Shown here: in pieces, positions 42,132-42,885 of the stretch
How positions within the stretch are numbered: position 1 is the first letter of the stretch
How the letters are laid out: each line of letters starts with the position of its first letter
DNA from: Escherichia coli
Lineage (GTDB): Bacteria > Pseudomonadota > Gammaproteobacteria > Enterobacterales > Enterobacteriaceae
Assembly (NCBI RefSeq): GCF_003790525.1
Contig: NZ_CP033635.1
Reading direction: 5' to 3' (one strand)
Length of the DNA stretch: 64,000 nucleotides
Notes under the pieces: model-generated
Databases searched by the model: none
Seen by the model: only the letters and a program-made list of their open reading frames with translations
What the model was told of the DNA's origin: nothing
Made by a program: the position numbers and the translations under genes

Positions 42132-42885
42132 GATGAAACCCCGCTTTTTTTATTGATCGCACACCTGACAGCTGCCTCTAAAATAGAAGCACCAGAAGTA
42201 CTGACAGATGTTGCACTGCTGTGTGTAGTAATAAATCAGCCCTAAATGGGTAAAATATAAAACTAATGGATTACATCTGATTTCAATCTAGCCATTACAA
42301 ATCTTAAATCAAGTGTTAAACATGTAACTAAATGTAACTCGTTATATTGAAATGTTAATCTTAAGGTTTTATTAAGTTTAGAAATGATAGAAAAGTTGTA
42401 CATTTAGTTTTTATTGCACAATTTTAAAAAATCATACAAATGGTGCTAACTTGCTAATAATGCATATAAAAAATATTTCGGTGTAGTCCTTTCGTCATGT
42501 AAAACGTTCTTGTTTTTTCTCTACACCTCCTTGGACAATTTTTTACTGCAAAAAGACGAGGTTTGTCACGGCTTGTGCGCAAGACATATCGCAGCAATCA
42601 GCGACGGGCAAGAAGAATGGCTGTCTGGTGATTTTTGATTGCGAAAAACGGAGATTTAAAAGAAAACAAAATATTTTTTTGCGTAGATAACAGCGTATTT
42701 ACGTGGGTTTTAATACTTTGGTATGAACAAAAAAAGAAAAATACAACGCGCGGGTGAGTTATTAAAAATATTTCCGCAGACATACTTTCCATCGTAACGC
42801 AGCGTTAACAAAATACAGGTTGCGTTAACAACCAAGTTGAAATGATTTAATTTCTTAAATGTACGACCAGGTCCAGGGTGACAAC
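42132..42885. promoter_or_regulatory. csgD-csgB divergent intergenic regulatory region (754 bp, AT-rich)
   Basis: Exceptionally long AT-rich divergent promoter region between csgDEFG and csgBAC, known to integrate many regulators in E. coli. Confidence 0.8.

Follow-up and report, generated by a model that had tools for sequence, protein, structure and literature searches.

The csgD–csgB intergenic control region in an Escherichia coli genome close to SMS-3-5: an undisrupted curli locus with twelve substitutions relative to K-12

Described curli control regions and the locus in the window

The circuit that links csgD to the csgBAC operon in E. coli is established knowledge (PMC12713406, PMC4152358, PMC12388358), and the published length of the csgD–csgB region is 754 bp (bioRxiv 10.64898/2026.04.22.719398; PMC13304067). 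For K-12, PMC4894380 (after Ogasawara 2010 and Jubelin 2005) gives footprints of H-NS (+28 to -201), CpxR (-68 to -80 and -90 to -102) and IHF (-37 to -96); the same paper places at -78 a palindrome for MqsA (AACCT-TA-AGGTT). Also described are an RcsB footprint from -31 to +53, spanning the csgD core promoter (PMC12388358), the OmpR site D1 at about -51 (PMC13304067, PMC10002515), and an MlrA palindrome, AAAGTTGTACA-N12-TGCACAATTTT, upstream of PcsgD (PMC3509220). The csgD leader is 148 nt long and is targeted by sRNAs (PMC4152358); therefore, the csgD transcription start is expected at approximately 42279 in the stretch of DNA analyzed here (64 kb, hereafter the window). In the corresponding model, a sigma-S/sigma-70 promoter at about 42279 would transcribe csgDEFG leftwards, and several Hfq-dependent sRNAs would act on the leader. 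OmpR (through D1), MlrA (under the control of c-di-GMP) and IHF would activate csgD, with H-NS, CpxR, RcsB and others as predicted repressors; CsgD would then bind a box near 42751-42761 and turn on csgBAC rightwards. The AT-richness and curvature of the region would favor binding of nucleoid proteins.

In the window, the csgD–csgB gap is exactly 754 bp, and it lies between divergent, full-length csgD and csgB (Table 1). The RefSeq annotation of the identical locus in E. coli SMS-3-5 agrees with this assignment. It should be noted that the listed 160-aa open reading frame from 42859 merely begins at an upstream in-frame ATG of csgB, the true start being the ATG at 42886 (MKNKLL...). The GC content of the region, 34.2%, compares with a window average of 50.4% and drops to a minimum near 30% at 42150-42600. 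This places the region within the most AT-rich 1.1% of all 754-bp windows in the 64 kb, and among the 56 intergenic gaps, which have a median of 82 bp, this one is the longest. Thus, both the expected length of about 754 bp and the AT-richness were found, and the coordinates of the original prediction, which had described a 754-bp AT-rich divergent regulatory region here, are exact.

All seven csg genes have the K-12 lengths and contain zero internal stops, and Pfam identified GerE and VpsT-like REC domains in CsgD, Curlin_rpt in CsgB and CsgA, and Tafi-CsgC in CsgC; both operons are thus complete, including csgC, as had been proposed. One and the same CsgG (WP_001189321.1) occurs in all genomes sampled. 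CsgD differs from that of K-12 by S19P and S110A, and the P19/A110 form (WP_000481500.1) is common to the window, O26:H11, O157:H7 86-24, APEC O1 and SCU-102, so it is the K-12 protein (S19, S110) that represents an atypical allele. CsgB carries S98N compared to K-12 and is identical to the proteins of APEC O1 and IAI39. In CsgA, there are three replacements (T61A, N110D, E112T) at 93.0% nucleotide identity to K-12. Apart from CsgC, with its E108G replacement, each Csg protein of the window has an identical annotated counterpart among other natural isolates. As a separate observation, when seven genomes were compared, E108G, located near the C-terminus of CsgC, was confined to the window and SMS-3-5.

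The csgA gene is dimorphic. The window allele is 32-33 of 456 nt (7%) away from those of K-12 and O26, and only 0-2 nt away from those of APEC O1, SCU-102 and IAI39, with at most 1 nt of difference to the first two; thus, two allelic classes are indicated. The neighboring csg genes differ by 0.2-2.8%, compared to the 7% for csgA, and csgA of O157:H7 86-24 is 459 nt long. This pattern suggests either that the allelic classes are deep and old or that csgA has undergone recombination.

Table 1. Features of the curli locus, in window coordinates; offsets with a minus sign are relative to the csgD transcription start
Feature	Position	Strand	Description
csgG	39786..40619	-	277 aa; curli secretion channel; K-12-identical amino-acid sequence
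csgF	40646..41062	-	138 aa; K-12-identical amino-acid sequence
csgE	41087..41476	-	129 aa; K-12-identical amino-acid sequence
csgD	41481..42131	-	216 aa; LuxR/FixJ-type master regulator; GerE + VpsT-like REC (Pfam)
csgD–csgB divergent intergenic regulatory region	42132..42885		754 bp; 34.2% GC
csgD 5' untranslated leader	42132..42279	-	148 nt; K-12-identical
csgD core promoter region (about -1 to -42)	42280..42321	-	K-12-identical
OmpR D1 activating site	42322..42343	-	tandem ATGTAACTAA/ATGTAACT, roughly -43 to -64; K-12-identical
First CpxR box	42347..42359	-	-68..-80, inside the IHF footprint -37..-96 (PMC4894380)
MqsA palindrome position	42357..42368		K-12 AACCTTAAGGTT; window AATCTTAAGGTT, one mismatch
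Second CpxR box	42369..42381	-	-90..-102 (PMC4894380); K-12-identical
MlrA site	42392..42425		AAAGTTGTACA-N12-TGCACAATTTT, -113..-146; both arms exact
Poly-T tract	42674..42680		7 T in window and K-12
CsgD box	42751..42761	+	CGGGTGAGTTA, upstream of csgB; K-12-identical
csgB-proximal promoter and leader	42765..42885	+	K-12-identical
csgB	42886..43341	+	151 aa; curli nucleator; Curlin_rpt (Pfam)
csgA	43382..43837	+	151 aa; major curlin; Curlin_rpt (Pfam)
csgC	43895..44227	+	110 aa; curli chaperone; Tafi-CsgC, 181 bits

Control elements and substitutions relative to K-12

The pairwise alignment with K-12 MG1655 (NC_000913.3, 1103197..1103950) covered 754 bp with 0 indels and 12 substitutions (98.4% identity), located at positions 42349, 42359, 42406, 42446, 42453, 42522, 42531, 42620, 42631, 42640, 42644 and 42729. 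Region positions 1-217, which include the csgD leader, the -10 and -35 elements, the RcsB footprint and OmpR D1, are identical to K-12, and so are the last 156 bp before csgB (42730..42885), with the CsgD box and the csgB promoter. This alignment is the check that the original prediction had proposed for indels in regulator binding sites, and its gapless result agrees with the statement that no insertion or deletion is apparent. The description of the region as intact is correct as far as structure is concerned; however, it overlooked the 12 substitutions, including those in the CpxR, IHF and MqsA sites.

The leader with its sRNA target region is present. The sRNAs listed for it are OmrA/B, McaS, RprA, GcvB and RydC, and the Rfam family RF02752 (ES056) matches 42187-42278 (- strand) with 119.7 bits, compared to a gathering score of 43. 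Judging from the sequence, TAGATT at about -11 to -6 is the putative csgD -10 element. A consensus scan of the region for sigma-70 promoters and terminators returned 2 promoter-like matches versus 3.7 in shuffled controls, neither of which coincides with the published csgD start; the scan was thus uninformative, which is to be expected with sigma-S- and activator-dependent promoters. The csgD promoter lacks the -10 point mutations that define promoter-up, temperature-independent csgD alleles and that PMC5635171 (citing Uhlich 2001) reports for curli-overproducing O157:H7, the sequence from the csgD ATG to -69 being identical to K-12.

Both activating elements upstream of PcsgD, OmpR D1 and the MlrA palindrome, were found, and the substitution 42406 G>A falls in the MlrA spacer and leaves the arms untouched. 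As an observation in its own right, this substitution creates a perfect 11-nt inverted repeat between 42326-42336 and 42399-42409, the arms of which are an OmpR D1 half-site, AACTAAATGTA, and an MlrA arm with part of the spacer, TACATTTAGTT. The idea that 42406 A makes a new OmpR-like half-site was set aside because this position varies freely among species and supporting data are lacking. Upstream of csgB, CGGGTGAGTTA is the sole match to CGGGKGAGNKA in the 64 kb (0.17 expected). We take this pattern to be the consensus of the CsgD box, which reportedly goes back to Brombacher et al. 2003, and on this assumption a CsgD box precedes csgB.

Two substitutions, 42349 A>G (-70) and 42359 C>T (-80), are within both the first CpxR box and the IHF footprint, according to PMC4894380. 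Owing to the -80 change, the MqsA palindrome reads AATCT-TA-AGGTT, so the perfect palindrome of the K-12-type MqsA-repressed promoter is absent from the window. The K-12 IHF-like core TATTAAAATGTTA has one mismatch in K-12 and two in the window, and a second IHF-like core inside the same footprint is unchanged. Loose consensus scans for CpxR and CRP were also tried; these produced many weak matches, nearly the same in the window and K-12, and were not discriminating. One additional weak CpxR-like match in the window is made by the substitution at 42406.

Distribution of alleles in E. coli and conservation in the genus

The window as a whole is 99.99% identical to E. coli SMS-3-5 (NC_010498.1), a strain of phylogroup F (PMC5635171), and the csgD–csgB region is 100% identical to those of SMS-3-5, IAI39, CE10 and others. 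A match of at least 80% of the length of the 754-bp region was found in 5,329 of 5,426 complete E. coli genomes. Haplotypes were counted in these 5,426 genomes using queries of 45-48 nt, in which each 28-mer seed had to span the variable sites. The window haplotype -70G/-80T was found in 273/5,426 genomes, the K-12 haplotype -70A/-80C, with the MqsA palindrome intact, in 2,256/5,426, and -70A/-80T in 2,400/5,426. The pair -167C/-174G (42446, 42453) occurs in 203/5,426 genomes, and A at 42406 in the MlrA spacer in 88/5,426. On these counts, the full allele of the window is that of a small phylogroup-F sublineage (88-273 of 5,426 genomes). In a nine-sequence alignment across phylogroups, K-12 is the outlier at 42631 and 42729, six window alleles are absent from the other sampled lineages, except for -70 G in WCHEC000837, and the remaining four are common to some of the other lineages. 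The MqsA palindrome is, by the same counts, a common polymorphism and not a fixed feature; it is intact in about 42% of complete genomes and in 0 sampled sister species, thus the regulatory link is not species-wide.

The original prediction had also treated the length of the region as preserved. This is correct in the sense that the length is the same as in K-12; however, not all E. coli share the 754 bp. The poly-T tract consists of 6 T in the representatives of O26 and O157, whose regions measure 753 bp, and of 5 T in APEC O1, with 752 bp; it explains all of the 754-, 753- and 752-bp classes among the genomes sampled, so that length is a weak test of integrity. Disrupted alleles do occur: in WCHEC000837 (NZ_CP032879.1), a 10-bp unit, ATGTAACTAA, is missing from the OmpR D1 tandem repeat (-43 to -52, region positions 191-200), and strain E3 (NZ_CM130010.1) has an IS1 inserted in the csgD–csgB region. 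Neither an IS1 insertion nor the 10-bp D1 deletion is present in the window, which has 0 gaps relative to K-12.

For comparison outside of the species, intergenic regions were collected by a DNA-pattern scan for which the leader and start codon of csgD served as the anchor. The scan matched E. albertii, E. whittamii, two further species of Escherichia and two divergent lineages that carry the label E. coli, and also Phytobacter and Kosakonia; Salmonella was not captured by the pattern. The Escherichia outgroup regions are 83-91% identical to the window. The region of Escherichia sp. MOD1-EC7003 is 733 bp long, and the other outgroups with a located csgB start have 755-756 bp. Genus-invariant blocks comprise most of the leader, the core promoter to -42 (42278-42292, 42294-42308 and 42310-42321), both arms of the MlrA site, the CsgD box and the 120 bp next to csgB (42765-42800, 42822-42838 and 42851-42885); the MlrA spacer is fixed in length and variable in sequence. 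None of the 12 substitutions is inside a genus-invariant block of 8 nt or more, and 11 of the 12 are at positions that vary elsewhere among 10 other Escherichia sequences, the exception being -70. Purifying selection on the functional elements together with neutral drift elsewhere would produce this pattern. We infer that most of the 12 substitutions are neutral polymorphisms of the lineage, with -70 A>G as the single candidate for a functional difference among them.

Several observations concern the wider window. IAI39, the csg intergenic region of which is identical to that of the window, shows no more than about 99.1% identity in the flanks and retains pgaABCD (with a frameshifted pgaC) and dgcT, unlike the window and SMS-3-5. 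Between phoH and tRNA-Ser (serX), at 35203-36414, roughly 8.2 kb of IAI39 with pgaDCBA and dgcT are absent, and so the strain has neither the operon for the PGA exopolysaccharide nor the diguanylate cyclase DgcT. The 1.2-kb replacement segment contains an open reading frame (35722-36408, + strand) for a 228-aa DUF2726 protein (Pfam, 66.9 bits). The pga-less phoH–DUF2726–serX layout is common to 431 complete genomes, and a pga-less phoH-csgG architecture has been noted in other strains (PMC5635171). The torS gene (3037-5780, - strand) is annotated as frameshifted in the SMS-3-5 RefSeq record; the long open reading frame on this strand encodes 979 aa from a TTG at 5987 and reaches its stop at 3048, falling 11 nt short of the annotated end, which fits a frameshift close to the C-terminus. 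Above the gathering score, Rfam also detected the antisense RNA Ysr251 at the 3' end of phoH (34961-35154, - strand, 192 bits), the cspA thermoregulator (908-1330, + strand), naRNA4 (12012-12090, - strand), ES036 (52372-52414, - strand) and the PyrC leader (61545-61594, - strand).

Interpretation of the locus and comparison with known systems

The region is an ordinary, already known and well-characterized curli control region, and it is undisrupted. We consider it highly probable that it is the orthologous, structurally intact control region of csgDEFG and csgBAC in the allele of the phylogroup-F sublineage that includes SMS-3-5, IAI39 and CE10. As judged from the alignments, the cis-elements needed for the circuit are present in the K-12 state, and by analogy these elements probably work as they do in K-12. 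The significance beyond annotation is small: the curli locus is complete and undisrupted, and its core cis-elements are in the K-12 state. A complete locus with such elements is a prerequisite for curli and for the rdar biofilm.

A different reading is that the region is structurally intact but retuned, with -70 G and -80 T altering the CpxR box, the IHF-like core and the MqsA palindrome, and thereby the way in which csgD reacts to envelope stress or the toxin-antitoxin regulator, its basal level or its temperature dependence. Both substitutions are indeed located where the published CpxR and IHF footprints overlap (PMC4894380), the match to the IHF-like core becomes weaker, and the MqsA palindrome is broken. 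Moreover, a 5-nt mutation of the other half-site of this palindrome drastically lowered MqsA binding in vitro (PMC4894380). The -70 position is A in 10/10 other Escherichia sequences, so that G is the derived state in the window. Polymorphisms that occur naturally in the intergenic region cluster with isolates of the semi-constitutive rdar type (bioRxiv 10.64898/2026.04.22.719398). In Salmonella, the activity of PcsgD is reduced 3-fold in a strain carrying SNPs at -80 and -189 and was abolished by a -47 SNP, although most serovar-specific SNPs are neutral (PMC6611641). Conversely, the csgBA reporter of K-12 is unaffected by deletion of cpxR or mqsR (PMC12713406), the second IHF-like core in the footprint is unaltered, and none of the sampled outgroups has a perfect MqsA palindrome. 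The -80 T is present in at least 2,673 of 5,426 genomes, about half, and is thus evidently a tolerated, common allele. Taken together, we regard a retuned region as quite unlikely. The stronger claim, that the derived -70 G, the imperfect MqsA palindrome and the rare MlrA-spacer variant could measurably rewire csgD control, is slightly more doubtful and in our opinion improbable; if it were true, curli expression could be distinct in this lineage owing to, for example, weaker Cpx/MqsA repression or changed bending by IHF.

The locus may also be intact in a strain that is curli-negative or atypical because of trans-acting defects outside the window, for example, in rpoS, mlrA, ompR, dgcE, dgcM or pdeR. 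The original prediction of a curli-competent strain depends on this point and does not follow from the locus, because curli-negative soil isolates with wild-type csgD and csgB promoters, carrying mutations in dgcE and pdeR, have been documented (PMC6029578). Curli expression requires rpoS, mlrA, ompR, ihfA and hfq as well as c-di-GMP enzymes (PMC12713406), and all of these are encoded outside the window according to the SMS-3-5 annotation. PMC3874044 further describes prophage insertions in mlrA and mutations in rpoS that limit curli in STEC. A literature search for curli phenotype data on SMS-3-5 found none. The window shows no sign of a trans-acting defect. The majority of natural E. coli strains in which the csg loci are intact produce curli at 28 C or below. 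We therefore consider a curli-negative or atypical strain unlikely, and we retain the interpretation of the region as the structurally intact control region of a phylogroup-F sublineage.

Compared to K-12 MG1655, the window has the same flanking genes, orientation and 754-bp length, and also the same leader, core promoter, D1 site, MlrA half-sites, second CpxR box and CsgD box; it differs in the imperfect MqsA palindrome and in the CpxR box at -68 to -80, which is changed at both ends. The agfD-agfB region of Salmonella enterica, compared here by its published description, has a similar divergent architecture and a length of 754-755 bp, with OmpR D1 at about -51 and inputs from MlrA, IHF, CpxR and H-NS, as in E. 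coli (PMC13304067, PMC6611641). The OmpR sites D2-D6 have been mapped in Salmonella only. In contrast to the shared architecture, the Salmonella leader is diverged from +1 to +54, and the effects of RcsB and H-NS are opposite to those in E. coli (PMC12388358).
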